Assembly: GCA_964497585.1 (NCBI GenBank)
Contig: CAZCDS010000010.1
Coordinates: forward strand, 1-55,535
Length of the DNA stretch: 55,535 nt
DNA from: an uncultured Syntrophaceae bacterium
Lineage (GTDB): Bacteria; Desulfobacterota; Desulfomonilia; Desulfomonilales; Desulfomonilaceae
Direction of reading: 5' to 3'
Shown: piece after piece, positions 3,986 to 55,535 of the stretch
Layout: each line of letters starts with the position of its first letter
How positions within the stretch are numbered: position 1 is the first letter of the stretch
Translations under genes and position numbers: made by a program
Notes under the pieces: model-generated
Told to the model about the DNA's origin: nothing
The model's database searches: none
What the model saw: only the letters and a program-made list of their open reading frames with translations

Positions 3986-4370
3986 GGTGCCTTCGTCAAA
4001 ACCCTGCGGCCGCCACGTGGGTACATCATGTTTACGGTGAATGCCGCTGGAATCCGGATTCCCAAGGACATGGCGTGCCCTGCCCTCCCCTTCGCCACCC
4101 GGGACCCATCGCATGAGTCCGCAGAGCGAGAGACAACTATGGTGCGCCGCGAACTCTTCGCGAAATACGCGCCCAAACTCAAAGCCGCATGGTACTTCTG
4201 GAATAGAACCAGCAAACAGGCCGGTCACACCGTTTCTTCGAGACCATCAGCGGCCTCGAGGAGGGCCCCTTTCGAATATTCAACCACTTCCAGGGAATCA
4301 GCGGGACGCTCAAATCGGTCGTCCCGCACTTCGCTTGCGCGATGATGTCAGCACCGGTTACCATAGAAGG

Positions 4371-4554: not shown

Positions 4555-7500
4555 ATGGCAAAGCAGATCAAGTCCCCCAAGTCTACTGGAGGAGGCGGAT
4601 ATCTTTTTGAAGACAAGGTGGTTGCTTACTTCCTCTGCTGCATGTTGACGGATTCGCCCCCCTTCGATCCCGAAGATGGGTCAATCACACGAATTGATTT
4701 CCAGTGTGGCCGGCTGGGTTGGCACCTAGACGATGTACTCCTGTTGTTGGAAACGTCGAATACGAAAAGAAGATGCGCAGTTTCCATCAAGAGCAATAGA
4801 CAGATCACTCAGAATGGTTTCCAACAAGAATTCATTTTGAGTTGCTGGGAGCAGTATCTTGGAGGAGAACCCTTTGAGATATCCAAGGACATGCTCTGTC
4901 TGGTTACAGCACCATTAGGTCTGGAAGTGAGAGATGCGGTCGACGAGTTGCTTCAGTGGTCACGGGTCCAGAAGCCTTCGGACCTGAAAAGAGGTTTGGA
5001 ACAGGCCGGTTCTGCGAACAGGTACCATCGGGCCGTGTTCGACAGCTGTTCCTGTCCCGAAGATCTCCGGGCAGCGCACGGTCTCACGGATGATGACATA
5101 GGCAAGCTGTTGAGTCACGTAAGGGTGCTGAAGTTCGATTTCCAATCAGATCCATCCGACTCTGTTCGAGAAGCCATCCGAATGTGCCGCAATATCCTGC
5201 GAAGTAACTCGGCGCGCGATGCGCAACTCCTCTGGGAGTGGTTATGCAGGATTGCTGCTGACAGCCGACCTCTTGCCGGCTCGTTGGTCCTTCCAAAGCT
5301 CATCGATCAACTGCGATTTGATTTCAAGCTACGCGACTTTCCCACCCATGAAGACGATTGGACGAAACTATGTGAACAGACTGGGACTAGTCTGCAAAGG
5401 ATTTCGGACACCATCGGTGGCGCGGTACGGGTGGATAGGCCAGAGGATCTGCAGCGAATCGGAGATTCTGTGCGCGCCAGCAGGATAACACTGATCGCCG
5501 GTCCCTCAGGCTGCGGCAAGACCGTACTGGCAAAGAAGTTTGCCGAATCAATTAGTGAACGAGCCACGGTGATTTGGTGGAATGCCGGACTCCTGGCACA
5601 CGGAGATTTGACATCGTTCGAGGGGAGCCGTCATCTCACCTATACCCTTAAGCAACTTCTTTCCTCCTTCACGGGCCAGGAAGCCTATCTGATCCTGGAT
5701 GGCCTGGACCGGCAATTTGATCGGGACACTTTCGCCAACCTCGCTGTCGTGATGACCACGCTGCGTCTGGGGGACAAATCAAGCCCCTGGCGAGTAGTCA
5801 TCTCCACCCAGGTGGAAGAAGTGCACAGGTTGCAGCGGGAACTCGCGCTAGCGGGTGTGAAGGCCGATCTCTTCCAGATCGTTCCCATTAAGGAGCCGAC
5901 ATGGCAAGAACTCCAGCCTGTATGGCGTGAATTCCCAGCTCTGGGTAGCCTTTCGCTCCGACCGGAACTCCATAGGCTGCTTTTAAAGCCTAAGATGTTG
6001 CAACTTTTCGCCACTAACATTGCAGACGCGCCGGTATCGGAAATATCAGGTTGGACTGGGGAATCGGACCTGATCGTCTGGTTCTGGGAGAATGTTGTAA
6101 GGAAAGGCCCTTCCGGTGCAACAAGGGACAGCTTTGTCAAGCGCCTTGCCCAAAGACAAGCGGACGAGTGTGCGTCCGAGCTTCCCGGAGACTCATTTGG
6201 CGTAGGCGAAACGGCGCCCTTGGGCGAGTTGATCTGCGACAGGATTTGCACATGCACGGACGAGAGATACACCTTCGAGCATGACCTCTTCGGAGACTGG
6301 GCAAGACAAAGGATTCTGGTCGGCAGGCAAAGCAATCTTGCCGATTATGTTGACGAGAAACTGGATTCTCCTGTGTGGCATCGTGCAGTACAACTGCTGG
6401 GGCTGCATCTCCTTGAACGAAGGTCCGTTGACGAGTGGGTCCAAGTCTGGACCAGCTTGCCACACGAAGGTGATCAGAGGGGACTGGCACAGGATCTCAT
6501 GTTGCAAGCAGTTATATTTGCCGCCAATCCACTTCCCCTGCTGGAGCAGATGTGGCCCGTTCTGAGTCAAGATGAAGGGAAGCTGCTCAATCGATTGCTC
6601 GCTGGATTTCTTCTGGTGGCCACATTTCCCAACAGGGCAATACAAGTCACATTGGCAAGCCTCTACCCGGAGTCTGCGACACACGCCAGAACACTGGAGC
6701 GGATACCCTTCGCGCTTTACTGGCCGCCAATAATCAGGTTCCTGCACAATCACAGCGATGACGTACTCAGACTGGCTCCTTTGAGGGCGGCCGAGGTAGC
6801 GGAGAAATGGCTCCAGTATTCTGAATCTGGTCTTCCGTGCAGGACAGAAGCGGCGGATTTAGCCTTGGAGCAGGCGGAGGACAGACTGGCTTCGAAGATG
6901 GTTTATTGGCGCGGTGTACCTAACGAGAAGTTGGATCGAGTGGTCTTCAAGGGAGCGCTAAAAGCTTATTCTGAGTATCCTGAGCGAACGGTGGCATTCG
7001 CCCTGACTGCCTGCGGAAGACGCCCGCCCTCGGATCGGATGAAGGCGAAGATTGAGTATCAGAGAAGGCTGAACCCGTTGCATGCCGACTCAGACTGCCT
7101 TCGAGAGCATACAGACGAGTGGGTTGAGGTATCATGGCGGCAGCGCTACCGCGATCCAGACGCGCAGCCACCGGATCCATGGCCTGATGGGCCCTCGCGC
7201 ATAGTCGACGAGGGTTTCGCAGAAACCTGCCTCACCACGGATGCGGTTCTCAGACTAGCCGCGACTGATCCTGCCGTGGCCAAAGAGATAGTCCTGGCCT
7301 GCTTGATCGAGACACCAAGTGACAGAATGGACGAACCAGAGATGGACAACCCACTTGCCAAGCTGGGCCTCAGCATGGTGGATCAAGAGTACTACCCTCC
7401 ATTTTGGACGAGGTCACCGTTTTGGCTTTTTCTGGGATTGGATCCGTCGGAAGCTGTTAATCTGATTATCCGGTTGGTGGATTTTGTCACTGAGAGATGG

Positions 7501-9837
7501 GCAAGCAAGAAGCGAGCACACAAACAGCAAGTATTCGAAATCGAGGTGACAATTCCCGGTGGCCAGCGCACTTTCGTCGGCGACAAGGAGGTTGCCTACT
7601 GGTTCACCGACTCGGGGACGGCTCCTCATTCGGTCGTCACTGCCCTGATGGCTCTGGAGAAGTGGCTCTACGATACTCTCGACAGGGAAGAATCCGTTTC
7701 GGAAGCCGTTGACCAAATCCTTGGTCGGGCGAAATCCACAGCGTTCCTAGGTTTGCTCTCCTGCGTGGGCAAGCGATACCCACAGCTCTTCCTGAAAGAA
7801 CTGCAGCCACTGTTGGCAATTCCAGAATTGTATCTGTGGGATGCGTGGCACCAAAGCCAAGGACAAGGACTTCAGATGCTTCCTTGGGGTGGGCTCAATC
7901 AGCCGGAGGTCCTTGTTCGGCTCGCTAAAGAATGGCACAGTATGGAACACCGCAGAGTGGACTTGCTCACCGTCGCATTCTACCTTCTCGTTGATGATAA
8001 AGGGACCCAGGACTTCTTTATCAGCGTCCGAGAGCAATGGCGAAATCTTTTGGAAGAGGGAGCTTGCGCCAGTGTTGGAGCCGGATTCCTCAGGCGCCTG
8101 ATTGACATCTTTGATCCTGCCAACCTGAGACAAGTCAGAGGTGCTGAAGGTGAAGTTATAGTGTACAGCGAGGGCATGCTCTCACAGTCTCCGGAATACG
8201 AGGCGGTGAAGCAAGACCTCGAGACCAAACAAATCCTACTGACCATGCCCTACCGTTGCAGACGATTACTATCAGGGGAGGATTCCCTCTCTGAGGAAGA
8301 ACTAGAGGGATTCTTGGCCCAAGTCCAGTCCATACCCTCCCTACAGATTCCGGATGCTTTTGATCTGGCATTCTTCGGCCCGGAAAACTGCGTAACTGGC
8401 GGAGCAGCTGTTCTCGTCAGGCATCACAGGGAATGGCTGAGAAAGCATCCTGATCGAGAACGATGGTGTGTGGAGCATCTCGTGGGAATAGTCTTGAATC
8501 CCCCCGGTCCATCCCCCGTGGAAAGCGAGTTGACCTACGTGGATTTACGATGGCAAGGGTTCTGCGCGCATGCTATCCCTATGCTCTGGGCGGAGCAGCC
8601 TGATTCTCGTGAACTCCGCCTATGTACGGCACGGCTTGGGACGGATGAGAAATACGACACAGTCAGAATACTCTTTGAATCAGCCGCGAGATTCAGACAG
8701 CAGCTAGGCTCGGACCTCAAACGCCTCCAGCACCTCGTTATGCGTTGGGCGGCTGCAAGGCCAATCAACACTCTCATTCAACGATCCGACTCGTCAGCAC
8801 CCAACGTACCGGGATGGCTCGATAACGAGATTGAGCAGTTCTGTCAGGGAAGCATGCTGCCGGAAGTACCGGAATGGAAGAGCATCTGCGATTCAGTGAA
8901 CGCAGCACTCCCCTATTCCAGTCCGTTTGATTGGACGGACGAGTCCAATAAAGCCTTGCGCATCGACCTTCTTCTTGTCATGGCCGCCAACGCTTGGATA
9001 CCTTCGCTCAACAAGGCATTGACTTCTGAAGAGAGAGCGGACTGGATTCATCTTTTCGAGGAAGCTCTGAACTACAGCATGGAGATCATAACCGAAATTC
9101 TCGAGGCCGGTGGAAAGTTAGGCTATGCCAACCACGAATGGTATGAATGGCTCTTTCGGCGACTCGTTAGAGTGATTCCCGAACTGAGCCAAAAGGAAAA
9201 GCCTGACCGATTCTGGAAACCCATCCTTGAATTGGGAGTCGACGGACATTACCGGATTGAGTCCTTCCTCAGTTGGTGGTTCATCGAAAATCTGCAATCA
9301 TCGCCTCCTCCTGGTCGTTTTCTTGAAGAATGGCAGAGAATGGTCGATTTTGCATTTCAGTCCCCACATTGGAGCTTCGAAGAGATCCAACACGGTTTCT
9401 ACGACCTCCAAAAGATGTGGTGCAACGTTATGGGCTTTGGTGCAGCCTGGGTGAAAATGTGGTCGGAGAACCACAGGTCCGTGATTGAGGCAATGCGGCC
9501 GAACTACCAGAAATGGGCCAAGGAATTCCTGGACAGACCGCAGTGCGGATCTTCCTTTGCCATCTTGCTGGAACAGGAAGGGGCACGAGGTCTCGTATTG
9601 GATGGATTGGTCTGGCTGGAGCAAGCCGTAGCAAAGAGGGGAGAAGGCTATTTCCGAGAAGAGAAGGTTCGGCGAATTGTTCTTTCTTGCCTAGACACTT
9701 GCTGGAGTACCGTAGGCCAGGAGATAAGAAGAAACGAAGCAGCCTTCAGTAGTCTGAAAAAGCTATTGCGTATACTGGCGGACAGACAAGAGCGGGTTGC
9801 AATAGAAATGCTGCGCACAATTGCAGAGACATGCTGA
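4555..9837 (+). CDS. Giant (1760 aa) NACHT/STAND-type P-loop NTPase with an uncharacterised ~300-aa N-terminal domain and a long helical-repeat C-terminal region. Candidate NLR-like/Avs-like defence protein.
   Basis: Walker A LIAGPSGCGKT (~nt 5497-5530) and NACHT-type Walker B LILDGLDRQFD ~60 aa downstream. C-terminal ~1200 aa is leucine/tryptophan-rich and helical. N-terminal GYLFEDKVVAYFL...EDGSITRIDF...LDDVLLLLE...AVSIKS is compatible with a divergent PD-(D/E)xK/Mrr-like fold. Confidence 0.65.
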   Translation: MAKQIKSPKSTGGGGYLFEDKVVAYFLCCMLTDSPPFDPEDGSITRIDFQCGRLGWHLDDVLLLLETSNTKRRCAVSIKSNRQITQNGFQQEFILSCWEQYLGGEPFEISKDMLCLVTAPLGLEVRDAVDELLQWSRVQKPSDLKRGLEQAGSANRYHRAVFDSCSCPEDLRAAHGLTDDDIGKLLSHVRVLKFDFQSDPSDSVREAIRMCRNILRSNSARDAQLLWEWLCRIAADSRPLAGSLVLPKLIDQLRFDFKLRDFPTHEDDWTKLCEQTGTSLQRISDTIGGAVRVDRPEDLQRIGDSVRASRITLIAGPSGCGKTVLAKKFAESISERATVIWWNAGLLAHGDLTSFEGSRHLTYTLKQLLSSFTGQEAYLILDGLDRQFDRDTFANLAVVMTTLRLGDKSSPWRVVISTQVEEVHRLQRELALAGVKADLFQIVPIKEPTWQELQPVWREFPALGSLSLRPELHRLLLKPKMLQLFATNIADAPVSEISGWTGESDLIVWFWENVVRKGPSGATRDSFVKRLAQRQADECASELPGDSFGVGETAPLGELICDRICTCTDERYTFEHDLFGDWARQRILVGRQSNLADYVDEKLDSPVWHRAVQLLGLHLLERRSVDEWVQVWTSLPHEGDQRGLAQDLMLQAVIFAANPLPLLEQMWPVLSQDEGKLLNRLLAGFLLVATFPNRAIQVTLASLYPESATHARTLERIPFALYWPPIIRFLHNHSDDVLRLAPLRAAEVAEKWLQYSESGLPCRTEAADLALEQAEDRLASKMVYWRGVPNEKLDRVVFKGALKAYSEYPERTVAFALTACGRRPPSDRMKAKIEYQRRLNPLHADSDCLREHTDEWVEVSWRQRYRDPDAQPPDPWPDGPSRIVDEGFAETCLTTDAVLRLAATDPAVAKEIVLACLIETPSDRMDEPEMDNPLAKLGLSMVDQEYYPPFWTRSPFWLFLGLDPSEAVNLIIRLVDFVTERWASKKRAHKQQVFEIEVTIPGGQRTFVGDKEVAYWFTDSGTAPHSVVTALMALEKWLYDTLDREESVSEAVDQILGRAKSTAFLGLLSCVGKRYPQLFLKELQPLLAIPELYLWDAWHQSQGQGLQMLPWGGLNQPEVLVRLAKEWHSMEHRRVDLLTVAFYLLVDDKGTQDFFISVREQWRNLLEEGACASVGAGFLRRLIDIFDPANLRQVRGAEGEVIVYSEGMLSQSPEYEAVKQDLETKQILLTMPYRCRRLLSGEDSLSEEELEGFLAQVQSIPSLQIPDAFDLAFFGPENCVTGGAAVLVRHHREWLRKHPDRERWCVEHLVGIVLNPPGPSPVESELTYVDLRWQGFCAHAIPMLWAEQPDSRELRLCTARLGTDEKYDTVRILFESAARFRQQLGSDLKRLQHLVMRWAAARPINTLIQRSDSSAPNVPGWLDNEIEQFCQGSMLPEVPEWKSICDSVNAALPYSSPFDWTDESNKALRIDLLLVMAANAWIPSLNKALTSEERADWIHLFEEALNYSMEIITEILEAGGKLGYANHEWYEWLFRRLVRVIPELSQKEKPDRFWKPILELGVDGHYRIESFLSWWFIENLQSSPPPGRFLEEWQRMVDFAFQSPHWSFEEIQHGFYDLQKMWCNVMGFGAAWVKMWSENHRSVIEAMRPNYQKWAKEFLDRPQCGSSFAILLEQEGARGLVLDGLVWLEQAVAKRGEGYFREEKVRRIVLSCLDTCWSTVGQEIRRNEAAFSSLKKLLRILADRQERVAIEMLRTIAETC

Positions 9838-9914: not shown

Positions 9915-10175
9915 GGGCTAATCCGGGATTTGCGTGAGCCCGTGAATCCGGGTAGACCATTCCTAATTCCATGTCCATATTTGCGGTCGACAATCATCAG
10001 GTCCGAACGTTCCCCAATGATTGCCGCTGTTGCACAAGTCGGTCCCCTGCCGCCGATTGACGGCGGACCGACCGAAGGCCAGCCCGTCTTGCTGCCGGCA
10101 CTCATCGCACGAGACGTCAACGGCAAAGATAGGCATGATGCACCCAACACTCCTACGCACTCCTGTCTTTTCGGA
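9915..10175 (+). repeat. Interspersed structured repeat, copy A (full length).
   Basis: Contains a 23-nt 5' unit GTGAATCCGGGTAGACCATTCCT, the core TGTCCATATTTGCGGTCGACAATCA...GGTCCGAACGTTCCCCAATGATTGCC, a conserved hairpin GTCGGTCC-CCTG-CCGCC-GATTGAC-GGCGG-A-GGACCGAC, and the tail AAGGGCGGCCCGTCTTGC.... Confidence 0.85.
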
Positions 10176-10318
10176 TCCACAGGAGCCTCCTGAAGTCGTC
10201 ATCAGAGCCAGGGTGGAAGAGGTGACGCCTCAAAAACCTGGGGCCGGATGAATTCCGGGCGCTAGTCCTCTCGTTGCCCGCCCCTAACCTTCCCATCCAT
10301 GAGCGGGATTCTCTTTCG

Positions 10319-10759
10319 CTACAGGGATAGTTCTTCCACGAGGACGACTTTCACGTCGGTTATCGTGGAGAGATTCTTGTCGTTAGTGAGCAACGCATCG
10401 CAATTACCTTGGAGCGCTGAAGCGACTTGAAAGGCGTCGGTGAGAGTCAGATTGTGGCTGGATCGAATGTCCGCAGCTATGCGCGCGGTGTCCCTTTGTA
10501 TGGGGACGAAAACGGAAGAAGGGTCGCCCCCCATAAGCTCAAGAAATGCCTCGATTACGTCAGCCCTTCCCTGTTTCATCGGCAACACGAGGCACTCAGC
10601 CAGCGTGATGGGAGATGTTACCGGTACGAGGTCGCCGGCCTCGAATCGACGGAAGACCGGTTCAAGAATCGAGCAATAGACAGGATGTCGCTCGACGAAA
10701 TAAATGACCGGCGCAGAATCCAGGAAGACGCGATGCATTCCGTTCAGAACTCCGCTCAT
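10319..10759 (-). CDS. PIN-domain toxin (VapC-like).
   Basis: 146 aa, with an N-terminal FLDSAPVIYF motif and C-terminal acidic residues typical of the VapC PIN fold. Immediately downstream of a small antitoxin-like gene. Confidence 0.7.
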   Translation of the reverse strand: MSGVLNGMHRVFLDSAPVIYFVERHPVYCSILEPVFRRFEAGDLVPVTSPITLAECLVLPMKQGRADVIEAFLELMGGDPSSVFVPIQRDTARIAADIRSSHNLTLTDAFQVASALQGNCDALLTNDKNLSTITDVKVVLVEELSL

Positions 10760-11216: not shown

Positions 11217-11395
11217 TGTGAATCCGGGTATGAATCCGGGTACACTATACCTCATTCTGTGTCCATATTTGGGCCGACAATCGCGCGGTCCGAACGTTCC
11301 CCAATGATTGGCTCTCTTGGACAAGGCAGTCCCTTGACGCCGATTGACGGCGGACCGACCCACAAGGGCGGCCCGTCTTGCCTCCGGCGGTCTAG
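11217..11395 (+). repeat. Interspersed structured repeat, copy B (tandem 5' units, 3'-truncated).
   Basis: GTGAATCCGGGTA-TGAATCCGGGTACACTATACCT, then core TGTCCATATTTGGGCCGACAATCGCGCGGTCCGAACGTTCCCCAATGATTGG... and the GATTGACGGCGGACCGAC hairpin half. Ends after AAGGGCGGCCCGTCTTGCC. Confidence 0.85.
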
Positions 11396-11499
11396 CCTGT
11401 GACGGAAATCGCTCTTGGAGTCATCTCACCGGTACTCGACGCAATCGCGTTGCCCCCCAAAAGGATCTATGGTACGCTTCACAATATTGGTAAACGTGA

Positions 11500-11725
11500 G
11501 CGCGAAATAGCAGTTGCCAAAAGAAGTGGCAGATTTCTTGTGGAAAGATTGCGGAGGGCTCTTTTTTCGGCAAAAAACCACCCTCCGCACCTCCCACAAA
11601 AAACTCCATATTTTCGGCAAACTGCTCCGCTTTGCTTCGCGAGTTTGCAGGATGACGTAGGCGGTTTCTTGAAACATACGCCACCGGCAATAAGACAGAA
11701 TTTTTGACAATCAGTATAATTGCTC
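11500..11725 (+). promoter_or_regulatory. Duplicated ~230-bp leader/regulatory element, copy 1 (upstream of the lactonase-like gene).
   Basis: ~90% identical to 12781..13010. Contains a GCGGAGGGC...GCCCTCCGC hairpin and a TTGACA...TATAAT-like segment. Ends ~70 nt before ATG 11793. Confidence 0.6.
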
Positions 11726-11792
11726 GTTGTTCGCGCACGCTTCTGATTCCGCCGAGCCAGGTTCCGAATGCTCAGGTCGACGGAGACGCATC

Positions 11793-12746
11793 ATGAAAGC
11801 TGTCACTCCTGTTAGCTCACCGAGCGCCAAGGTGCGGGTCGTAGCGAGCGGTCTGGAGTTCCCCGAGGGCCCGATCGCGATGACTGACGGTTCCGTGCTC
11901 GTGACCGAGATTGCCGCTGGCAGACTCACCAGGGTCCTGCAGGACGGTAGGATCGAACACGTCGCCGAGATCGGCGGCGGCCCCAACGGTGCGGCAATCG
12001 GGCCCGATGGAACCGTCTATGTCTGCAACAATGGCGGCAGCTTCTCGTTCCAACGCAAGGACGATCTGCTCGTCTTCGGACTTGTGGCGCCACCCACCTA
12101 CACACAGGGAAGCATTGACCGGGTCGACCTCTCTACAGGCGAGGTTACCACCCTTTACAGCGCCTGTGGCAATCGTCCGCTGCGTGCCCCTAACGATATT
12201 GTCTTCGACAGCACGGGCGGTTTCTGGTTTACCGATCACGGAATACGCACCGAACGGTCGAGCGACTTCACCGGGGTTTTCTATGCCCAGCCCGACGGTT
12301 CAAGTATCACCGAGAAGATCTTTCCTCTGGCCAGCCCGAACGGCATCGCCCTGTCGCCTGACGGAAGTCGTCTCTATGTCGCTGAGACCCAGGTCGGGCG
12401 CATTTGGTATTGGGACCTTGATGGTCCCGGCGAGATTGCGAAGAACTCGGACAGTGAATTCCATGCGGGCAGGCTCCTCTACGGGGCACCGGGCTACGCG
12501 CTGTTCGATTCGATGGCGGTCGACGGCGAGGGCTGGGTATGTCAGGGGACATTGATGGAGGGTGCCATCACCCAGATCGCTCCGGACGGTCGGACGGTCG
12601 AGATCCTGACTCTGAGTGACCCCATGATCACCAATATCTGCTTCGGTGGTCCCGACTACCGCACGGCATTCATAACGTGTTCCGGCACCGGGCAATTGAT
12701 TGCGGTGGACTGGCCGCGACCTGGTTTGCGATTGGCCTTTCCTTGA
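11793..12746 (+). CDS. SMP-30/gluconolactonase/LRE-like beta-propeller hydrolase.
   Basis: ORF 11727..12746. Start placed at MKAVTPV (ATG 11793 after GGAG). Repeated GG..G..DG..Y...N beta-propeller motifs typical of the lactonase/SMP-30 family. Confidence 0.65.
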   Translation: MKAVTPVSSPSAKVRVVASGLEFPEGPIAMTDGSVLVTEIAAGRLTRVLQDGRIEHVAEIGGGPNGAAIGPDGTVYVCNNGGSFSFQRKDDLLVFGLVAPPTYTQGSIDRVDLSTGEVTTLYSACGNRPLRAPNDIVFDSTGGFWFTDHGIRTERSSDFTGVFYAQPDGSSITEKIFPLASPNGIALSPDGSRLYVAETQVGRIWYWDLDGPGEIAKNSDSEFHAGRLLYGAPGYALFDSMAVDGEGWVCQGTLMEGAITQIAPDGRTVEILTLSDPMITNICFGGPDYRTAFITCSGTGQLIAVDWPRPGLRLAFP

Positions 12747-12780
12747 TCGTCTTGATCGAGGGATCGCGTTCCGCTCAGGT

Positions 12781-13010
12781 AGAGCCTGCGCTTATAGCAG
12801 GTGCCAAAAGAAATGGCAGATTTCTTGTGGAAAGATTGCGGAGGGCTCTTTTTTCGGCAGAAAGACCGCCCTCCGCACCTCCCGCAAAAAACTCCATATT
12901 TTCGGCAAACTGCTCCGCTTTGCTTTGCCAGTTTGCAGGATGATGTGGGGCGATTCTTGAAACACACGCCACCACCAATAAGACAGAATTTTTGACAATC
13001 GGTATATGAA
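12781..13010 (+). promoter_or_regulatory. Duplicated ~230-bp leader/regulatory element, copy 2 (upstream of the ThDP enzyme gene).
   Basis: Same ordered motifs as copy 1 (GCCAAAAGAA.TGGCAGATTTCTTGTGGAAAGATTGCGGAGGGCTCTTTTTTCGGCA.AAA.ACC.CCCTCCGCACCTCCC.CAAAAAACTCCATATTTTCGGCAAACTGCTCCGCTTTGCTT...AATAAGACAGAATTTTTGACAATC). Confidence 0.6.
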
Positions 13011-13040
13011 GATGAGCTTGACGTTTTCCGAGGAGACAGC

Positions 13041-14750
13041 ATGGTGAAAACAACCGAGTACATGATCAAAGCGCTTCGGGATCAGGGCATCAGCCACGTT
13101 TTTATCGGTCTTGGCGGCCTGAATGATAACTTCATGCCGCCTTTGACCGAAACCGAGGGTCTGAGGACAGTCGTCACCGCGTTCGAGGGTGGCGCGGCCT
13201 ATATGGCGGACGGCTATTCACGAGCTTCAGGCGGTCTCGGCGTGTGTTTCGGAATCGGTGGCCCAGGCGTTCTCAACATGACTACCGCGCTCGCCGCCGC
13301 AAGCACCGACCGCAGTTCGGTCCTCGCCGTCAGCGGTGAAGTCGCGCGGAGCTGGGAAGGAATGGGCGGCTTTCAGGACGCTTCCCAGGCCGCGATCGAC
13401 GATATCGACATTCTCCGGCGCATAGCGGGATTGTCGCTGTCGATGTCGTCAGCCGCGGTTGTTCCACGTCATCTCAGGCACGCCATAACGTACGCGTTCA
13501 CAAGGCGGTCACCAGTTCACTTGTCAGTGCCTGTCGATGTGCAGAAGGCGGAGATCCACGAAGAATGGCAGCCGATCCCGACATCGCTGTTGTCCGCGAA
13601 ATTCATCGACGAAGAAGCGTTCGCCACTGCGGTCGGCCTGCTCAATAACTCGGAGACCAGAAACATTATCGTACTCGCTGGTCCCGGCGTAAAGGGATAC
13701 GGCGCGGACATGCTGCTCCAGTTCGCGGAGCGGTTTGATGTCCCGGTGGCGACCACACTTTCGGGCAAAGGGGTGATGCCCGAAGATCATCCATTGGCGC
13801 TCGGCGTGTTCGGTTACGGGGGATCGCGTCCGGCGATCGATGCAATCTGCTCCGATGAGGTGGAGGTTCTGCTCGTCATCGGCTCCGGTTTGTCACAACG
13901 CGACACGATGCAATGGGACCCGAGAATGCTTCCCTCCAAGGCGCTGATTCAGGTGGACGCCGACCCGCTGCTGATCGGCCGGACCTGGACCGCCGATGCA
14001 CCGATTGTCGCCGATCCGGCCGCGCTGCTCAAAGAATTGGCGGATCTCCAGGACGCCGCGGAACTCGAGGCCGGTCGCAACTATCGTCTGGACTTTCTGC
14101 GCAAAATCAACGCGCTCGGTCCTCGCTGTTACAGCAGCGAAGACACGGAGAGCAACGCCATACCCATGCATCCGGCGCGGGTCGTGACAGAGCTTCGCGC
14201 GGCTTTCCCTGATAAAGGTGTGCTCTGCGTCGATTCCGGTGCGCACCGAGCCTGGTTCGCCGAGTATTGGGAAGCGCGCCATCCGGGGACCCACTTCTCT
14301 CTGACGAACCTCGGCCCGATGGGCGGAGCAATTCCACTCGGCATCGGCGCAAAGATGGCCCGGCCCGAGCGCCCGCTCATGGTCGCGACGGGAGATGGAT
14401 GTATGCTGATGCACGGCATGGAACTGCACACCGCTGCGCGCGAGGAGGTTCCGCTCGTCATCGCGCTGATGAACAACCAGGCGTACGGCAACATTTACTT
14501 TCGCGCCGCACAGATGGGACCCGGCCCAGAGCATCTCACCGATATTCCCGGCATCGACTGGGTCGCTTTTGCCAAATCGATGGGGGGTGATGGAGAGCGG
14601 GTGGAACGTCCCGAAGGCATCGCGGCGGCCGTCAGCCGTGGGCTCGACGCCTCGGGCCCGTATCTCCTGGATCTTCAAATTGACAAGACCTATCCAACGC
14701 CTGTCGGTGTCTGGCGGGCACGTCAGAAGGAATGGGAGGATAATGACTAA
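13041..14750 (+). CDS. Thiamine-diphosphate-dependent enzyme (acetolactate synthase / benzoylformate decarboxylase superfamily).
   Basis: 569 aa. N-terminal Pyr domain (GISHVFIGLGGLNDNFMPP...GIGGPGVLN), central domain, and C-terminal PP domain with a GDG...N ThDP motif (ATGDGCMLMHGMELHTA...NNQAYGN). Confidence 0.8.
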   Translation: MVKTTEYMIKALRDQGISHVFIGLGGLNDNFMPPLTETEGLRTVVTAFEGGAAYMADGYSRASGGLGVCFGIGGPGVLNMTTALAAASTDRSSVLAVSGEVARSWEGMGGFQDASQAAIDDIDILRRIAGLSLSMSSAAVVPRHLRHAITYAFTRRSPVHLSVPVDVQKAEIHEEWQPIPTSLLSAKFIDEEAFATAVGLLNNSETRNIIVLAGPGVKGYGADMLLQFAERFDVPVATTLSGKGVMPEDHPLALGVFGYGGSRPAIDAICSDEVEVLLVIGSGLSQRDTMQWDPRMLPSKALIQVDADPLLIGRTWTADAPIVADPAALLKELADLQDAAELEAGRNYRLDFLRKINALGPRCYSSEDTESNAIPMHPARVVTELRAAFPDKGVLCVDSGAHRAWFAEYWEARHPGTHFSLTNLGPMGGAIPLGIGAKMARPERPLMVATGDGCMLMHGMELHTAAREEVPLVIALMNNQAYGNIYFRAAQMGPGPEHLTDIPGIDWVAFAKSMGGDGERVERPEGIAAAVSRGLDASGPYLLDLQIDKTYPTPVGVWRARQKEWEDND

Positions 14751-15370: not shown

Positions 15371-15483
15371 AATCAAGGAAGAGAAGGGTAAGAGTTTGCC
15401 GTGGAGGGCTTTCAGCAAAAGTGCCCTCCCCAGCCTTCTATCCAAAGTCTCTATCGCTTCGCGCCGGTAGCCCCCCGCCTGCG
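15371..15483 (+). repeat. Direct repeat copy 2 (orphan 3' end of the Mo-subunit gene plus terminator hairpin).
   Basis: Matches 3881..3985, including the codons encoding ...IKE.KG* and the GGAGGGC/GCCCTCC hairpin. No gene body upstream. Confidence 0.8.
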
Positions 15484-17314: not shown

Positions 17315-17535
17315 GTGGGTGCCCAAGGGTAGCCATCATTCTGATTCTGTGTCCATATTCCCTCTCGACAATTATGCGGTCCGAGCATCCCCCAATGATT
17401 GCCTCTCTTGCACAAGTCGGTCCCATTCTGCCGACTAACCGAACACCGACGCAAGGGCGGCCCGTCTTGCACGGGCTGGCACTCATCGTATGAGCCGTCA
17501 GGCCCCAGAGACACCTATGGTGTCCCCCGAACTCG
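17315..17535 (+). repeat. Interspersed structured repeat, copy C.
   Basis: Core TGTCCATATTCCCTCTCGACAATTATGCGGTCCGAGCATCCCCCAATGATTGCC, degenerate hairpin, tail AAGGGCGGCCCGTCTTGCACGGGCTGGCACTCATCGTATGAGCCGTCAGG and the AGAGACACCTATGGTGTCCCCC motif. Confidence 0.85.
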
Positions 17536-17686
17536 GCCCGAACTTCTGTCCCTCGAACTTTGCCTGCCGCGTATCGGGTCGACAGCACAGTCGGGATAAT
17601 GCCTGCTTTCAGCATGAGTCAACGTCTCTAGGGGCGTTACCCCGACGACCTTGACACGGCCCTTCGGGCACCCGAAGGGTGTGCGG

Positions 17687-19672
17687 TTATTCCGACGAGC
17701 ACGGTTCGCTCATCTCGCTCCCTGCTGTCGGGGCTTCCATGCGACTTTGAATCGTCTTGAACTGATAGAGATGCGCCAGTTGGCTTTGAGTCAGTCTTAG
17801 ACCTCGTTCCCGAAGCAACTTTGCAGTTTCTGTATGGCCGTTATGGACTGCCACCATAAGTGCCAGCTTGCCGAGGTTATTCTTGCCGGTAATTCTCGCT
17901 CCCTTGTCCAGCATGAGCCGGACCAGCTCAGTATCACCTGACTCGGCCGCCACTTCGATAGGAATGGTAAGAGGTCGGGGCACCTCTAGTCTCCCTCCGG
18001 AATAGTGCGTGACCAGGGCTTCGTTGACATCCGCTCCGTGTTCTACCAAGAGCCGCATAACTTGCAGATGGTGGCCGTCGGCAGCCGCGATCAAAGGGGT
18101 ACCATCGTACCTTGTTCCCGCTCGAACGTCGGCGCCCCTTGTCAGGAGGAATTCGACCACCTTCGCGTGACCTTTCTTTGCAGCCTCCAGTAAAGCTGAG
18201 CCGTCGCCACGGTTCCGGGGATTGATTTCCGCACCACCGTCTACGAGGATCTTAACCATTTTCAGGTCACCGCGTCGCGCGGCCTCCTTGAACGGTGTGC
18301 GTCCAAAACGCATCTCCTCGTTGGGATCGGCCCCCCGTGCCAGCAACAGTCGAGCGATCCTGTGCCTTCCGTATTGGACGGCGACAAAGAGCAGTGAACC
18401 GGTACCGCAAAACCTTTGTGCACGGTCGAGATCGCCCTACTCCTCTAGACGCCGGCGAACCTCCGCAGCATCCCCCACTGCGACGGCCCCATCGAGAGTC
18501 AGTTTGGCCCCAGCGTCTATCAGCACGTCGACCACGTCACTGTAACCAGAAAGGACGGCGATGGAAAGTGCCGTGGCGCCTTTCCAGACCGCATTGACAT
18601 CCGCTCCTCGGTCCGTGAGGAGTCTGATCGCCTTAGGGTGACCTCGACTGGCTGCGTACATGAGTACCGTCTCACCGTCCCTATTCCTGGCATTAGGGTC
18701 TGCCCCGGCCTCCAGCAGTATCTTTACGACTTCCGGCCGATTACCTTCAGCCGCGATCATGAGCGCTGTCTGTTGCCCCCACGGGTCTAACGCATTGATC
18801 TCGGCTCCCTTGCCCAGGAGCAGTCGTACGACGGCAGGATTACCTGCCCAAGCGGCGGTCATGAGAGCGGTCCAGGTCCTATAACTGTACGTCGCCGCAT
18901 TGACGTCGAGCCCTCGATCCAGAAGGAGCTTGACGACTTTCAGCCGGCCGTGTCGAACGGCCTCGTTGAAGGCGCTTTGGGTGAACTCGGCATTTCCTTT
19001 GAGGTTCTTGACGCGATCGAGAAGCAGTTTCACCACCTTCACGTGGCCGTGGCCGGCTGCCAACCTCGTAGACACTCTGATACTGGGTATGAGATCCGGG
19101 GGCACAGGTGCGTTGCCACTTCGCTCTTGCGTCTCGCCGGTCGAACCGACGGCCAAGTCCTCACTGAGAAGTCGTCGTACGGTTGCTGCGTCTCCGAGCA
19201 ACGCGGCACTGCTGAGGGTCTGTTTCGCTCCGTGGGTCAGGAGAAGCTTCACGATCTCAGTGTGCCCCTCGCCCGCAGCCACGTCTACGGCGGTCCTTCC
19301 GCGAGCAGTCACTGCACGCAAGTCTGCACCGTGATTCAAAAGCAGCTCGGTTATTTCGAGGTTCCCACGCCGAGCCGCGATCATCAAGGCCGCTGTACGA
19401 TACTTGTCCGCCTCATCCGCGTCGGCGGCCTCGCATAGCAGCCGTTTGGTGAGCCTGAGGTTCCCTTCCCTGACAGCATCCAAAAGGGGATTCCTATGCC
19501 ACCAGGGACGTGAGGTTACGTCAACACCGTGTTCTCTGTAATGAGCCTCAGCCTCCCGCGCAGGATCGGTGTCTGCAAGAACGTTGAGGGTCGGGAAGCT
19601 CGGGGCAAAACATACCAGTCCACCGATGAACACCGTCGCGGCGAACATGACGACGCGATTGCCGTGCATCAT
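17687..19672 (-). pseudogene. Secreted ankyrin-repeat protein (~660 aa) interrupted by an in-frame TAG at 18437..18439.
   Basis: ORFs 18437..19783 and 17687..18346 are in the same frame. Translation across the gap reads ...VRRRLEE*GDLDRAQRFCGTGSLLFVAVQYGRHRIARLLLARGADPNEE..., a continuous ankyrin repeat. The downstream part has no ATG of its own. N-terminus MMHGNRVVMFAATVFIGGLVCFA is a signal peptide (start 19672, RBS GGAG). Confidence 0.6.
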
Positions 19673-19741
19673 TCTTGACTCCTCTGGCGAGGCGAGTTGT
19701 CTCAAGCATTTGTCACCCTTGGGGACATCACCTCCGGCGAA

Positions 19742-19945
19742 ACCATCGTTGATTTTGAATCCATATTTGCGGCCGACAATCACGCGGTGCGAACGTTCCC
19801 CAATGATTGCCTCTCTTGGACACGTCGGTCCCTTTCTGCCGATTGACGGCGGACCGACTCAAGAGCGGCCCTCCCTCACTAGGTACAACCGTCCCATGAG
19901 CTGTCAGGCTACAGAGATGGGTATGGTGTTCCCAGGAATCTTGAA
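19742..19945 (+). repeat. Interspersed structured repeat, copy D.
   Basis: ATCCATATTTGCGGCCGACAATCACGCGGTGCGAACGTTCCCCAATGATTGCCTCTCTTGGACACGTCGGTCCC...GCCGATTGACGGCGGACCGAC..., lying between two ankyrin genes. Confidence 0.85.
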
Positions 19946-20018
19946 CCAGCCAACGAACGGCGCCGAGCCATTCCGCGCGAATCCTCACCGGGCTTACTGA
20001 GAGGTTACCTTCTCCGCA

Positions 20019-23000
20019 CTATTCCGTGGCACCTCGGGACCTGAGGAACTGAGCGACTTTCTTCTGTCCCTCGCACCGTGCCATCCACAGGGCAGTCCTG
20101 CCATACCTGCCTCTGCCGTTGATATCCGCTCCGTTATCCAGAAGAAGCTTGACTACATTCAGGTGACCTCGTTCTGCCGCCGACTGCAAAGGCGTGTGGC
20201 CGAGTGAGCCAGCCCGCGCGTTGACATCGGCACCATCATTTATCAGCCGTTGGACCTGTTGCACATCCCCCATGAGAGCGGCGACATCCAGCGTCATCAC
20301 AGCGCCACGCTCCAGGAGTATTCTTGCTTTTTCCGGGCTGCCGTATCGGACGGCGTTCTCCAGGGGAGTGCGGCCGTCTTTTGCTGTAACGTTGACGTGA
20401 GCCCCTTTATCCAGGAGCAGTTTCATGATGTCCACCTTGCCGGGCCTTGCCGCCGCAGCCATCAGGGGTGTATTTCCGAGGCCAGACCTGACATTGACAT
20501 CGGCGCCCTTGTCAAGGAGCAACTTCACCATTTCTAAGTCACTGCGTCCCCCGGCATACCAGGACAAGACGCTCCGGCCTCGTATGGTCCTCGTCCGGAT
20601 GTCAGCACCTCTGGCGATGAGCATTCTTGCTGCTTCGTGATGGGCGTACATGACTGCATCTTGAAGGGCAGTCGCGCCTTTATTGTCCACTATGTTCATA
20701 TCCGCGCCTCTCTTCACCAGCAAACTTACCAGGTCCAAGTTTCTGCCGAATCGGGCCGCGGCCATCAAGGCAGTCCTTCCCTTCTTGTCCGTAGCGTTTA
20801 CGTTTGCTCCGTTGTCAAGGAGAAATTTCACGTCTTGAAGAATGTGCTGCTTGGGAGAAGAGCCCTTTGCCCTGGTTCTGTATCTCGTGGCTCCGTTTAC
20901 GACAGCGACGAGTGGTGTGCGGCCATGTCGGTCCCTTGCGTTGATATCGGCCCCCTTGTCGAGCAGCAGCTTAGCTACCCACTCCTGGCCCGTGGCCAGT
21001 GCTTCTATTAGCAGCGGGTCACCATTGGGGCATCGTGCGTTGACGTTTGCTCCCTTTTCGATAAGCAGTTTCACCACTTCCGGACTCACGTTTCCATCAG
21101 GCAGGGAAGGCTCAATAGCGAAGTACAGAGGTGCTCCCCCGTGCATCCCCGCCATGTTCACATCAGCACCTCCTTCTATCAGCGCCTTGACCATCGCCAA
21201 CCTCCGTCCCATGCAAGCATCAGTTAGAGGCGTATGCCTGTCATGGCAGGACGATACGTTGACGCGAGCACCCTTTTGGGTGAGAAGCCTTACCATATCC
21301 AGATTGCCCTTCAGCGCGGCTATGGCCAGAGCTGTTTCTCCCCGGTTGTCTTTCGCGTTCACGTCGGCTTTGTATTGCAAGAGCAGTTTGACCAACCCCA
21401 TGTGGTTGCCTGATGCAGCGTGCACCAGTGCAGTTTGACCACGGGCATCCCGTGCGTTTACGTCGGCCCCTTGCTTGAGAACGACCTCCAGCCCTTTCTC
21501 GTCTTTCATAGCGGCCAGATGGCTCACGTTGAGCGTGACGCCACGGTCTTTCAGTAGTTTCACGACATTCGAGTGCCCATGCTCCATCGCTCTCAGGAGC
21601 GCGGTCATCCGGGACTGGTCCTGCTTTTTCGAGGAGTCCGCTCTGTCCAGCAATAGCTTCACCATGTCGGTTCGGCCATTCGCGGCTGCCAGGACTATTG
21701 GGCTGTCACCTCCTCGGTTCCCTCCCTTAGGAGGAACACCACTATCCAGAAGATACTTCACTACGTCGATGTGTCCCGCTGCAGTTGCCTGGAATAGTGC
21801 CTGCCCTCCCTGTCCGTTCTCTCCGGTAAGACGAGCCCCTTTCTTCACCAGCAGCTTCACCATTTCCAGATCGCCTTTCCCAGCTACCACGGTGAGTGCA
21901 GTGTAGCAGCTCTGGATTCTGGTTCCTCCCTCGCACGCCCAGTGGTTTACGTCCGCTCCATTATCGATAAGCAGCTTCATGACCTCCCGGTGGCCACCCA
22001 TGGCAGCGAGAACCAACGGATTGCCCACCATGGATGCGGGACCTTTGTTGACGTCAGCCTCATGCTCCAACAACAGTCGCACCATCTCGATGTGCCCACG
22101 CTGGGAGGCTTCTGCCAGTGGAGTCAACACGAACATCGCGTCAACGTTAGCCCCTCTGGCCAGCAGAAGCTCTGCAACTGCCTTGTAACCTCCTTGGGCA
22201 GCTACCATTAGCGGAGTTTGTCGGTCCATGAAGAGAGTAGTAGGACCCGGCCCTGCCCCTGCGTTCACACCCACTCCATTATCCAGGAGCGACCTTACCA
22301 CTTCCAAGTGCCCTTTTCCGGCAGCGGCCAAGAGGGCTTCGTTGCCACCGAGTCTACGGACCCTTTGAGCCTTATCATCCTTCATTTTGGCCAGTTGCCG
22401 CTTCACTTCCTCAACATCCCCCAGGACGGAAGCTACCTTGAGGGTCATTGGGACGCCCCGAGCCAGGAGCAGCTTGACTATATCGAGATGCCCTTTATCG
22501 GCAGCCGCCCACAATGCTTTCCTACCGCTGTCCCCTGTCGAGATGACATCAGGGCGCCTGTCCAGGATCAGTTTGACGATTGCTGAGTGCCCTGTCCGAG
22601 CGGCATCAGCAAGGGCGTCCGTGCTTGGTACACGCCCGGGGTTTGCATCGATCTCAGCCCCTCTTTCCAGGAGCAGATTCGCAATTTCCAGATGTCCCTT
22701 CAGTGCAGCATTAACCAATGGGGTGGCGTATTCTTTGTCTGAGTTGACATTCGCGCCTCGGTCCAGGAGAAGCTTCACCACTTCCAAGTGTCCGTGCAAA
22801 GCTGCCTCCCACAAGGCCGACCTCCCGCGGCCTCGTGCGTTGACGTCAGCCCCCCTGTCCAACAGGAGTTTCACAACTTCCAGGTGCCCGTTTCGAGCAC
22901 TAAGAGGCAGAGCCGCAAGGAAACTCTCGGCCGTAGGGTTCACATCGCTTCCCTTGGCAAGGAGGAGCTTCACCACCGCCATGTGTCCTCCTGCAGCGGC

Positions 23001-23219: not shown

Positions 23220-23320
23220 AACCTGCCTCCTACTCCCAACGGATCGGTTGCCTGTTCGCGCTGACACTACCTGATGCACCAAAGTCTTCGCGTACGGAAT
23301 GCGCGTTCCCGAGTCAAGCC

Positions 23321-55331: not shown

Positions 55332-55535
55332 AGCTTCGTCGACTCGCATACCCCGACGGAATGAAGCTGACCGAAAGCCGCAATGCCCGTCACCGCCCGC
55401 CGGGGGTTTTTGACAAAGGCGACCGGTGTACCTGCCCGACATCATAGAGTTTTTGGGGAGGGGTCCGGGGGGGGGGTTTTTTCAAAAAACCCCGCCCCCG
55501 GTAAATCATGCGCCTCTCAGTGGCTGGGTGGGGGG

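Follow-up and report, generated by a model that had tools for sequence, protein, structure and literature searches.

We analysed a 55,535-nucleotide stretch of DNA (the window) in which an SMP-30/gluconolactonase-like gene is followed, on the forward strand, by a gene for a ThDP-dependent enzyme. A preliminary description of this DNA had placed a structured leader directly upstream of each gene, and this arrangement was confirmed, both gene identities being upheld by Pfam (Table 1). The lactonase-like protein has 317 aa, the same length as its cluster mates, and its ATG (11793) lies 76 nt past the end of the first copy (copy A). The ATG of the ThDP-enzyme gene (13041) lies 36 nt past the end of the second copy (copy B). 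The host lineage is uncultured and ankyrin-rich, and the cluster mates are "Deltaproteobacteria bacterium" MAGs.

The two copies are direct repeats with ~92% identity, and the window contains no other full copies. Positions 11507-11718 and 12794-13006 align over 213 columns with 92% identity and one 1-nt indel. The duplication reported earlier, a unit of ~230 bp with ~90% identity, is real but shorter, at ~210 bp, as the outer 8-14 nt on each side were unrelated flank. All four motifs listed for the unit were found in both copies, and the 40-mer and 24-mer motifs each had 2 exact matches in the window versus 0.00 expected. Copy B (12838-12846 / 12868-12876) reproduces one of the listed features, a hairpin GCGGAGGGC-21 nt-GCCCTCCGC, exactly; copy A has one mismatch in the 3' arm (ACCCTCCGC) and a loop of 20 nt. 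Three full-length copies were available for comparison.

The element does not code for protein. Its six-frame translation was compared with 5.8 billion proteins. No protein family was matched, and the search returned only two gene calls, which overlap other copies of the element. The concatenated six-frame translation of a 502-bp long form of the element (see below) gave no match to proteins, a search that random candidates probably swamped.

Table 1. Positions of the features discussed, in window coordinates
Feature	Position	Strand	Basis or remark
Frameshifted remnant of IS630-family transposase C-terminus	4121..4332	+	tblastn with L007 DDE_3 transposase; two HSPs, different frames; E = 3e-6
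Copy A (probable MITE), 209 bp	11508..11716	+	Bounds from alignment of the copies, flanks unrelated; nhmmer profile E = 1.5e-73
Left TIR, copy A	11508..11537	+	Contains the previously listed motif TGGCAGATTTCTTGTGG; copy B counterpart 12795-12824
Internal imperfect palindrome, copy A	11509..11626		Self reverse-complement BLAST 73%, E = 1e-9; copy B counterpart 12796-12914
Right TIR, copy A	11687..11716	-	Contains the previously listed motif AATAAGACAGAATTTTTGACAATC; copy B counterpart 12975-13004
Sigma-70-like promoter match AAGACA-17 nt-TATAAT, copy A	11692..11720	+	10/12 consensus positions
TA target-site duplication, right of copy A	11717..11718		Left partner 11506-11507 = AA
SMP-30/gluconolactonase-like gene, between the two direct copies	11793..12746	+	Pfam SGL 1.1e-45
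TA target-site duplication, left of copy B	12793..12794		Right partner 13005-13006
Copy B (probable MITE), 210 bp, lactonase-ThDP spacer	12795..13004	+	nhmmer E = 1.5e-75
Copy B equivalent of the promoter match, AAGACA-17 nt-TATATG	12980..13008	+	Weaker -10; did not pass scan
ThDP-dependent enzyme gene, 3' of copy B	13041..14750	+	Pfam TPP_enzyme_N/M/C
Distant partial relative, GC-rich hairpin then CCCCAAAAACTCTATGATGTCGGGCAGG, cut at window end	55433..55497	-	nhmmer E = 6e-4; BLAST 68% over 69 nt

Ends and target site of the element

Each copy is bounded by imperfect, weak terminal inverted repeats (TIRs) of ~30 nt with about 55% identity. Ungapped matches of 17/30 (copy A) and 16/30 were reached by 18 and 51 of 100,000 shuffles. 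Furthermore, 17 ends, taken from 8 elements, fit a single ungapped consensus, TA followed by TAGYGATTGYCAAAAATTCTGTC.

Copy B is flanked by TA on both sides and copy A on its right side; the AA to the left of copy A is a decayed TA. The same dinucleotide adjoins 13/15 MITE-type ends from other copies, plus both ends of an IS found at one related locus (L007). Formally, a 2-bp TA duplication cannot be distinguished from TA as part of the element ends. The left flanks (CTTA, GAAA, GTTA, ATCA, TTTA) have only TA in common and show no fixed tetranucleotide.

Three other classes did not fit. IS200/IS605-derived elements have subterminal hairpins and no TIRs, and they insert 3' of a fixed tetranucleotide without duplication; here TIRs are present, the left flanks share no such tetranucleotide, and no TnpA/TnpB gene lies nearby. 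A REP/BIME has palindromic units of 20-40 nt that are headed by 5' GT[AG]G, makes no target-site duplication and is associated with a RAYT gene. The present unit measures 210 bp, begins TAGCAG and is flanked by TA on either side, and there was no Y1 transposase among the Pfam-scanned ORFs of the window. An integron attC site was rejected on inspection: the RYYYAAC/GTTRRRY core sites are missing, and even the GTT is absent from copy B.

Both sites are empty in related loci

Orthologous lactonase-ThDP loci were fetched by ThDP-enzyme homologues with 94-72% identity (L004, 94%; L005 and L006, 90%; L008, 87%). We found that site B is empty in L004, L005 and L006, and site A in L005/L006 and L008, with the same gene order. 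In the empty loci the flanks rejoin at one dinucleotide, which is a single TA, or GG/TG in some relatives. At site A this dinucleotide is TA in L008 and TG in L005, 23 nt after a conserved GCTTCAC and directly 5' of ATTGCTCG/ATTATCTG. Site B reads GCGCT-TA-element-TA-TGAAGATG in the window, GCGC-TA-TGGATG in L005 and GCCCT-GG-TGAAGATG in L004, and its lengths are exact for a 2-bp duplication. Compared with L004, L005 and L006, the window has 212 extra nt at copy B, cleanly inserted, and the flanks of this copy are 89-97% identical to L004, where they are uninterrupted.

A search for the leader upstream of the same genes in other genomes had been proposed as a check. In L004, L005, L006, L007 and L008, the DNA that precedes the orthologous lactonase and ThDP genes lacks the element. 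The possibility that it occurs only as the flank of another repeat family had also been raised, and no such repeat lies near copy B. We conclude that the two 'leaders' are very probably two separate insertions of one ~210-bp non-autonomous TA-targeting transposable element (MITE).

In L004 the lactonase and ThDP genes are 82 bp apart and are probably co-transcribed. The lactonase gene has been lost independently in L007 and L008. In addition, another element, of ~95 bp and inverted, lies in L008 about 15 nt away from site B and shares both of its ends with the present one; the right-end sequence GGTTGTCAAAAATTCCGTC terminates this ~95-bp element in L008 and also in a further locus, L017. Positions 10-24 kb of the window and the corresponding locus in relatives stand out as a hot spot of TA-targeting insertion, with two copies in the window, the small L008 element, the IS630-family IS of L007 and the loss of the lactonase gene in L007/L008.

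A dispersed and mosaic family

Related metagenome contigs carry the family at at least five further independent loci, and the window has two full copies and one weak partial copy in its 55 kb. The contexts are diverse. The copy in L011 is full length and 80% identical, and lies antisense in an operon spacer between the co-directional HGD-D and BcrAD genes. The L017 copy lies between convergent genes, and L018 also carries a family member. Both window copies and a copy in L009 are in sense orientation 36-76 nt 5' of a start codon; 3/6 contexts are sense-upstream of a gene. L009 also contains two long forms of 502 bp as well as solo arms and a tandem array, and in L009 and L017 the hairpin has taken up other sequences. 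With its long forms, hairpin inserts and tandem arrays, the family is mosaic and goes beyond the complexity of a textbook MITE.

Short-read Logan contigs from the source sample are interrupted within copy B and within the partial copy that the end of the window cuts, which is the behaviour to be expected of repeats. An exact 22-mer scan of genome contigs gave only two chance matches, inside coding regions. Exact scans of metagenome contigs gave none with a 33-mer and two chance matches with a 21-mer, these collections evidently not including the relevant metagenomes. A BLAST search of plasmids with the element, in distant mode, gave no match.

Only 1,288 bp separate the two copies, which share their orientation and are about 92% identical, as they would be if one of them were a native upstream region that recombination or replication slippage had copied locally. 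However, the relatives lack the sequence at either site, the bounds are sharp and TA-flanked with unrelated flanks, and more copies exist elsewhere. In the right part that the copies share, copy B has 94.0% identity to a copy in L009, on an unrelated contig, versus 90.1% to copy A. Since copy B is nearer to that L009 copy than to copy A, two independent insertions are indicated rather than a local duplication, which is exceedingly unlikely.

The element might instead be a shared operator or promoter, possibly mobile, that is retained for the binding of a transcription factor and for the co-regulation of a regulon. Each copy contains TTTTCGGCARA two times, and the window has no further match (4 versus 0.11 expected); the block CGCAAAAAACTCCATATTTTCGGCAAAC is the best conserved part and is intact in the L011 copy in spite of its divergence. 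Three sense-upstream contexts agree with such a role. Nevertheless, the two TTTTCGGCA copies are explained by the architecture of palindrome and loop, the contexts are heterogeneous with no linked regulator, and the sites are empty in relatives. We therefore consider a retained operator unlikely, and the earlier proposal of a regulator-binding region tied to these metabolic genes was not supported, given the empty sites and the unrelated neighbours.

The long hairpin

The small hairpin is the tip of a ~118-nt imperfect palindrome that the preliminary description had missed. Its tip stem is GCGGAGGGC/(G or A)CCCTCCGC, and its right arm is the block CAAAAAACTCCATATTTTCGGCAAACTGCT of that description and ends in a third, inward-facing TIR-like sequence. 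For the palindrome of copy A, the RNA fold z was -5.5 on the plus strand and -8.2 on the minus strand. The predicted RNA folds of the minus versus plus strand were -64.0 vs -46.8 kcal/mol in copy A, -58.1 vs -51.5 in copy B and -46.0 vs -39.1 in the L011 copy. Pairs of the G-U type totalled 14 vs 6 between the strands, which are small counts, and under DNA parameters both strands fold equally. The diverged L011 copy has extra stem mismatches and no compensating changes. Between subfamilies the tip stems differ yet pair (GCGGAGGGC/GCCCTCCGC, CTGGGGGC/GCCCCCAG and GGGGAGGGCC/GGCCCTCCCC). The better fold as minus-strand RNA is left unexplained by the promoter model (see below).

A dominant long hairpin, the mosaic and tandem arrangements with sequences inserted in the hairpin (L009, L017), the greater stability of minus-strand RNA in all three full-length copies, and the varying tip stems that keep their pairing would all suit another hairpin-dependent class. 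This could be a REP/BIME (RAYT) or an IS200/IS605-type palindrome-associated element, either recognised as ssDNA or acting as a structured ncRNA from the minus strand. Such a class is very unlikely. TIRs with TA on both sides fit a DDE transposase and not Y1/HUH enzymes, which make no target duplication. The element lacks a GT[AG]G head, and neither the window nor the loci contain a RAYT, TnpA or TnpB gene. Moreover, the strands fold equally under DNA parameters, and the G-U counts are low.

The hairpin-loop inserts, tandem arrays and 502-bp forms (L009, L017) would also be compatible with a reading in which the element is a module of a mosaic, hairpin-centred family. In this view the hairpin may be selected as minus-strand RNA, in keeping with the G-U asymmetry and the 7-17 kcal/mol advantage, and the element would encode or template a structured ncRNA, or serve as a strand-specific target or insulator, and would have rewired an ancestral lactonase-ThDP operon into two genes driven separately. 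We give this reading little credence.

Promoter-like sequences and the leader hypothesis

Among the two copies, only copy A passed the promoter scan. Its -10 hexamer is a hybrid, made up of the element end (TA), the duplicated TA and the flank (AT). The right end of the MITE may supply a sigma-70-like promoter, but L011 and L017, the diverged copies, do not conserve the -35 and -10 hexamers. The earlier suggestion of a small mobile promoter cassette comes near to this picture of a mobile, MITE-like insertion with a sigma-70-like match, a putative promoter, at its right end. An outward -35 TTGACA, 11-12 nt from the right end, combined with a -10 in the flank was rejected, there being no -10-like hexamer 16-18 nt downstream in either copy.

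The left arm of both copies contains the sigma-54-like sequence TGGCAG-N5-TTGT with correct -24/-12 spacing. The sigma-54 consensus is GG-N10-GC (-24 TGGCAC / -12 TTGCW). A sigma-54 promoter at the TGGCAGATTTCTTGTGG motif was rejected: the GG and the spacing are present, but GT replaces the -12 GC. A canonical sigma-54 site, TTGGCAT-N5-TTGCA, occurs elsewhere in the window.

Transcription from upstream, for example from the left-arm TGGCAG-N5-TTGT, could make the element a cis-regulatory RNA leader (riboswitch-like or an attenuator) that co-regulates the lactonase and ThDP genes. The sense orientation of three copies close to start codons, the fold of the first 120 nt on the plus strand (z = -5.4 to -5.5 versus shuffles) and the -24/-12-like motif in both copies would fit this explanation. 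It is largely refuted by the same sites being empty in relatives that keep the genes. Furthermore, the element is antisense in the L011 operon spacer and lies between convergent genes in L017, the L011 stem gains mismatches without compensation, the sigma-54 motif lacks the -12 GC while the canonical site lies elsewhere, and the opposite strand forms the more stable hairpin. The proposed Rfam check found no family at the gathering threshold (window) or at E <= 1-5 (region, L009-L011), only noise. A leader of this kind is exceedingly unlikely, and the riboswitch-like reading of the preliminary description was not borne out in these empty, antisense, convergent and unrelated contexts.

A candidate mobiliser and possible consequences of insertion

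IS630-family elements are the group of bacterial elements known for duplicating TA. In L007, at the same locus, we identified an IS630-family IS (Pfam DDE_3 6.5e-33) with a TA duplication. Its ends are TAGTGAGGCTCCCAAAGAACTGCGG and begin with TAGTGA...CCAAAGAACTG. They have TAG(T/C).. and CCAAAGAA..TG in common with the ends of the element, with about 11/25 matches ungapped and more with one gap. The TA target and the L007 IS, which is flanked by TA and resembles the element in part at its ends, suggest that an IS630-type transposase probably moves the MITE in trans. The window itself contains a remnant of such a gene (Table 1), with fragments below Pfam-detectable length, and no intact transposase with matching ends was found.

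According to the proposed mechanism, the element inserts at TA and duplicates it. Its left 120 nt form the long imperfect palindrome, with a third TIR-like sequence as the outer right edge, and the unit resembles a small palindromic MITE, complete in itself, joined to a tail of ~90 nt with a further TIR at its end. Each insertion would displace the native upstream DNA by about 211 bp and would set the AAGACA -35 at 17 nt from a -10 at the junction, TATAAT in copy A and TATATG in copy B. Transcripts that read through the element would contain an imperfect hairpin of ~50 bp. The direct copies bracket the lactonase gene, and recombination between them could delete it.

Should the right-end promoter be active, the two genes would be uncoupled by the insertions and driven anew, a small natural case of MITE-driven operon rewiring. 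For annotation, a false lead is removed: a 90%-identical structured 'leader' resembles a riboswitch or regulon signal but is repeat DNA. Specialists in mobile elements would find none of these consequences surprising.

Comparison with known systems

The element is probably a MITE, a type of repeat common in bacteria. Bacterial MITEs typically have TIRs, a terminal 5'-TA-3', target-site duplications and long stem-loops; RUP has been attributed to IS630-Spn1, and Correia elements have sigma-70-like promoters, are cut by RNase III and affect the expression of neighbouring genes (PMC2229807, PMC10969869).

Like a riboswitch or 5' leader, the element is a structured sequence that directly precedes metabolic genes, and both window copies lie in sense orientation. 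Unlike these, it is not conserved with the genes, occurs in unrelated and antisense contexts and has no Rfam match.

The ~120-nt imperfect palindrome, the location in intergenic transcribed regions, the size variants by insertion, the mosaics and the several reading frames open across the element recall ERIC/IRU and BIME (PMC2229807). In contrast, ERIC has short TIRs and another sequence, and BIMEs consist of 20-40-nt REPs moved by RAYT, whereas the present element has 30-nt TIRs and a TA duplication.

The RUP element of Streptococcus pneumoniae shares the TA target and has TIRs that resemble an IS630-family IS of the same lineage, from which mobilisation in trans was inferred (PMC2229807). 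The TIRs of RUP closely match IS630-Spn1, whereas here the match to the sole IS630-family IS found (L007) is partial.

Correia elements (CREE/NEMIS) of Neisseria are similar as a functional analogy only. They are likewise small and non-coding, with TIRs and TA termini with target duplication; they also form a long stem-loop when transcribed, often lie just 5' of genes and have a sigma-70-like promoter at the end. The present element differs in its length (210 bp versus about 100-155 bp), in its asymmetry, with a palindromic half, a tail and three TIR-like sequences, and in its host, an unrelated uncultured lineage, while the Correia family has a 26-bp TIR.

The duplicated sequence and its insertion sites

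The preliminary description proposed a duplicated structured leader of ~230 bp. We confirmed two direct copies upstream of the lactonase-like and ThDP-enzyme genes, 92% identical over 213 columns with one 1-nt indel (11507-11718 against 12794-13006), although the junctions shorten the unit to ~210 bp. The four motifs listed earlier were each found in both copies, and the 40-mer and 24-mer motifs have exactly 2 matches each in 55.5 kb, against 0.00 expected. The lactonase ATG lies 76 nt past the end of copy A, and the ThDP-enzyme ATG 36 nt past that of copy B. The proposed 9-bp hairpin is exact in copy B but has one mismatch in copy A, and is the mere tip of a long imperfect palindrome. Three of the six reading frames of the element lack stop codons along its full length, a fourth is open except for the first codon, and the other two have stops in the tail only. 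Elsewhere, some gene callers have annotated element copies as 'proteins' (record P0121) or have run real genes on into such copies (P0122).

Relatives were chosen as close homologues of the ThDP enzyme, and their contigs were fetched. The gene order lactonase, ThDP enzyme, CMD-family gene is kept in three of them (L004, enzyme 94% identical; L005 and L006, 90%). The lactonase-ThDP spacer measures 294 bp in the window versus 82 bp in L004. At the insertion position of copy B (site B), the left flank (12701-12792) matches L004 2961-3052 at 89% and the right flank (13007-13043) matches 3055-3091 at 97%. Since both flanks are contiguous in L004, the window's element was inserted cleanly at site B. 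The filled site reads GCGCT-TA-[TAGCAGG...ATCGGTA]-TA-TGAAGATG; the empty site reads GCGC-TA-TGGATG in L005 and GCCCT-GG-TGAAGATG in L004, with the length exact for a 2-bp duplication. Site A, filled, reads ...GAGCGCGA-AA-[TAGCAGT...ATCAGTA]-TA-ATTGCTCG. Its empty forms in L008 (GAGTGCTG-TA-ATTATCTG) and L005 (AAGTGACA-TG-ATTGCTCG) lie 23 nt past a conserved GCTTCAC, the same distance as in the window. Both copies are absent from all sampled relatives, and the parsimonious reading is a gain of both in the window's lineage.

We also observed that the lactonase gene was lost independently in two relatives, L008 and L007. The lactonase-ThDP locus is unstable across the lineage.

Ends and architecture of the element

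The first 30 nt of copy A match the reverse complement of its last 30 nt at 17/30 ungapped positions, a score reached by 18/100,000 shuffles; copy B scores 16/30 (51/100,000). One end consensus, TA|TAGYGATTGYCAAAAATTCTGTCYGATTG, aligns 17 ends from 8 elements without gaps. Because the terminal repeats share this consensus, two of the motifs described earlier are explained: TGGCAGATTTCTTGTGG lies within the left repeat and AATAAGACAGAATTTTTGACAATC is the right one. A third version, facing inward, forms the outer end of the right palindrome arm (...TTTTCGGCAAACTGCT). The 210-bp unit thus resembles an entire palindromic element of ~120 bp joined to a tail of ~90 nt, which itself ends in another repeat. 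The sequence TTTTCGGCARA occurs twice per copy, but the palindrome and loop layout explains the pair, which speaks against reading it as an operator signal.

As RNA, the palindromic half is predicted to fold more stably from the minus than from the plus strand: -64.0 versus -46.8 kcal/mol in copy A (5 versus 2 G-U pairs), -58.1 versus -51.5 in copy B (4 versus 3), and -46.0 versus -39.1 in L011 (5 versus 1). With DNA folding parameters, both strands are equal. The tip stem varies by subfamily with pairing kept (GCGGAGGGC/GCCCTCCGC; CTGGGGGC/GCCCCCAG; D7 repeat, GGGGAGGGCC/GGCCCTCCCC). These small numbers leave room for selection on a single-stranded form of the hairpin. In the stem of diverged copies, we found mismatches and no compensating changes.

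Family members elsewhere

Exact-pattern scans of genome and metagenome collections gave chance matches only. The family was found by six-frame translation of the element against the protein database, seeking gene calls that overlap other copies; with a phmmer run, this led to contigs L009, L010, L011, L017, and L018. The 502-bp long forms of L009 (94% identical to each other) share the left arm and the last ~150 nt with the short element and have ~290 nt extra between; one stops 44 nt upstream of a DUF6125 gene. L009 also carries a solo left arm and a tandem array of left-arm units. Judged from its sequences, the family is mosaic. An nhmmer profile recovered all collected copies and, in the window, the two full copies, a weak partial one, and nothing else. 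In the right part that all three share, an L009 copy is 94.0% identical to copy B, whereas copy A is only 90.1% identical to it; therefore, A and B are not simply mutual duplicates. In the Logan short-read assembly of the source sample, contigs end within copy B and within the partial copy, as is usual for repeats.

These data argue against both a riboswitch-like leader and a shared regulator-binding region or operator: the same sites are empty in relatives, and contexts and orientations are mixed. For the riboswitch, the element also has no Rfam match at any threshold, and the uncompensated stem mismatches of the diverged copies are likewise unfavorable.

Features of the window and of related contigs
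Feature	Contig	Coordinates	Remarks
Copy A	window	11508-11716	limits set by junctions
Copy B	window	12795-13004	limits set by junctions
Palindrome, copy A	window	11509-11626	~118 nt, 73% self-complementary, E = 1e-9
Partial copy	window	55433-55497	E = 6e-4
SMP-30/gluconolactonase-like gene	window	11793-12746	Pfam SGL 1e-45
ThDP-dependent enzyme gene	window	13041-14750
Candidate promoter, copy A	window	11692-11720	AAGACA-17 nt-TATAAT, 10/12 positions
IS630-type (DDE_3) transposase remnant	window	4121-4332	frameshifted
Second repeat family	window	9943-10180, 11231-11400, 17341-17560, 19729-19950, 23324-23660	~220-250 bp
92-nt repeat pair	window	3894-3985, 15383-15474	87% identical
Near-canonical sigma-54 promoter	window	29506-29522 (+)	TTGGCATCAAGATTGCA
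Sigma-54 activator gene	window	27801-29177 (minus)	divergent, ~330 nt from the promoter
Multihaem cytochrome / cytochrome b gene	window	30201-31916	with a small ORF, downstream of the promoter
Ankyrin-repeat proteins, large	window	17687-23474, 38334-39689	219, 448, 1151, 451 aa; internal DNA repeats
PIN-domain gene	window	10319-10759
1760-aa ORF	window	4555-9837	no Pfam domain
Long forms	L009	3969-4470, 12551-13052	502 bp; tandem unit + element's right 150 nt
Tandem array	L009	6265-7097	three repeats of a ~250-360-bp unit headed by the left arm, with a different GC-rich hairpin and GC-rich tail
Full-length copy	L011		80% identical, TA-flanked; antisense, between HGD-D and BcrAD genes
Copy with ~100-nt insert in hairpin	L017		convergent genes on either side; adjoins a second small element
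Right part only	L018		shares its locus with an L009 long form; different sample
Lactonase remnant	L008	3580-3640	start codon region fused to the gene's last ~100 nt
Lactonase remnant	L007	9880-9935	stump similar to that of L008, beside an IS630-family IS

Likely mobilizer

A 2-bp TA duplication with terminal inverted repeats is the signature of IS630/Tc1-mariner transposases. RUP and IS630-Spn1 are an example (PMC2229807). In L007 (ThDP enzyme 86% identical), the ThDP gene is immediately preceded by an IS whose product is a DDE_3 transposase carrying HTH domains (Pfam 6.5e-33). This IS has TA on both flanks, and its ends (TAGTGAGGCTCCCAAAGAACTGCGG) are like those of the element in their opening bases and across the CCAAAGAA..TG block; the likeness is not close. 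L008 carries a different ~95-bp element, inverted and TA-flanked, ~15 nt from site B, with both termini as in our element. The window holds its own transposase remnant; a cognate transposase was not found in the window or the fetched loci. From this partial likeness of ends and the missing cognate enzyme, we infer with moderate strength only that an IS630-type transposase moved the element.

Possible effects on neighboring genes

A small mobile promoter cassette had also been proposed, and of the three proposals it alone is supported in part. The mobile insertion stands, but the promoter is a consensus match that copy A alone passes. In copy A, the -10 hexamer combines bases from the end of the element, the duplicated TA, and the flank; copy B (AAGACA-17 nt-TATATG) did not pass. 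Other copies have TATAAA, TATATG, or TTATTG at the -10 position, and the -35 is changed in L011 and L017. An outward sigma-70-like promoter is thus plausible in copy A, and doubtful as a property of the whole family. A sigma-54 candidate, TGGCAG-N5-TTGT, was rejected: its spacing is right, but it is without the -12 GC. A canonical TTGGCAT-N5-TTGCA exists elsewhere in the window, beside a sigma-54 activator gene. Our scan gave no convincing intrinsic terminator at the element, and read-through transcripts of the lactonase gene would include the long hairpin.

Other repeats in the window

A second, unrelated repeat family has at least 5 copies in 14 kb and no Rfam match. Its inverted termini (GGGTACACCATACCTAAT ... 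AGGTATGGTGTCCCC) are distinct from those of the element, and its GC-rich core (GGTCCGAACGTTCCCCAATGATTGCC...GCCGATTGACGGCGGACCGAC) is well conserved. The family probably represents either a further MITE or a structured-RNA repeat. One member precedes copy A by ~110 nt, and in L009 the hairpin loop of an element copy contains a fragment of this second repeat. The 92-nt repeats directly follow the stop codons of a xanthine-dehydrogenase-like gene and a CMD-family gene; each has a hairpin, GGGGAGGGCC-N10-GGGCCCTCCCC, and then CCAAAGTCTCTATCGTTTCGCG. Their architecture resembles the center and right arm of the element, with nhmmer similarity not significant (E = 0.65).

Relation to known elements

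Taken together, the sequence features indicate that the element is a TA-targeting MITE; its kind is well known, but the family is new and has no name. The host lineage is uncultured, and its cluster mates are MAGs labelled "Deltaproteobacteria bacterium". Correia elements offer a documented precedent: these MITEs carry sigma-70-like promoters, and RNase III cuts their hairpins once transcribed (PMC10969869). Correia and RUP elements are functionally the closest known systems.
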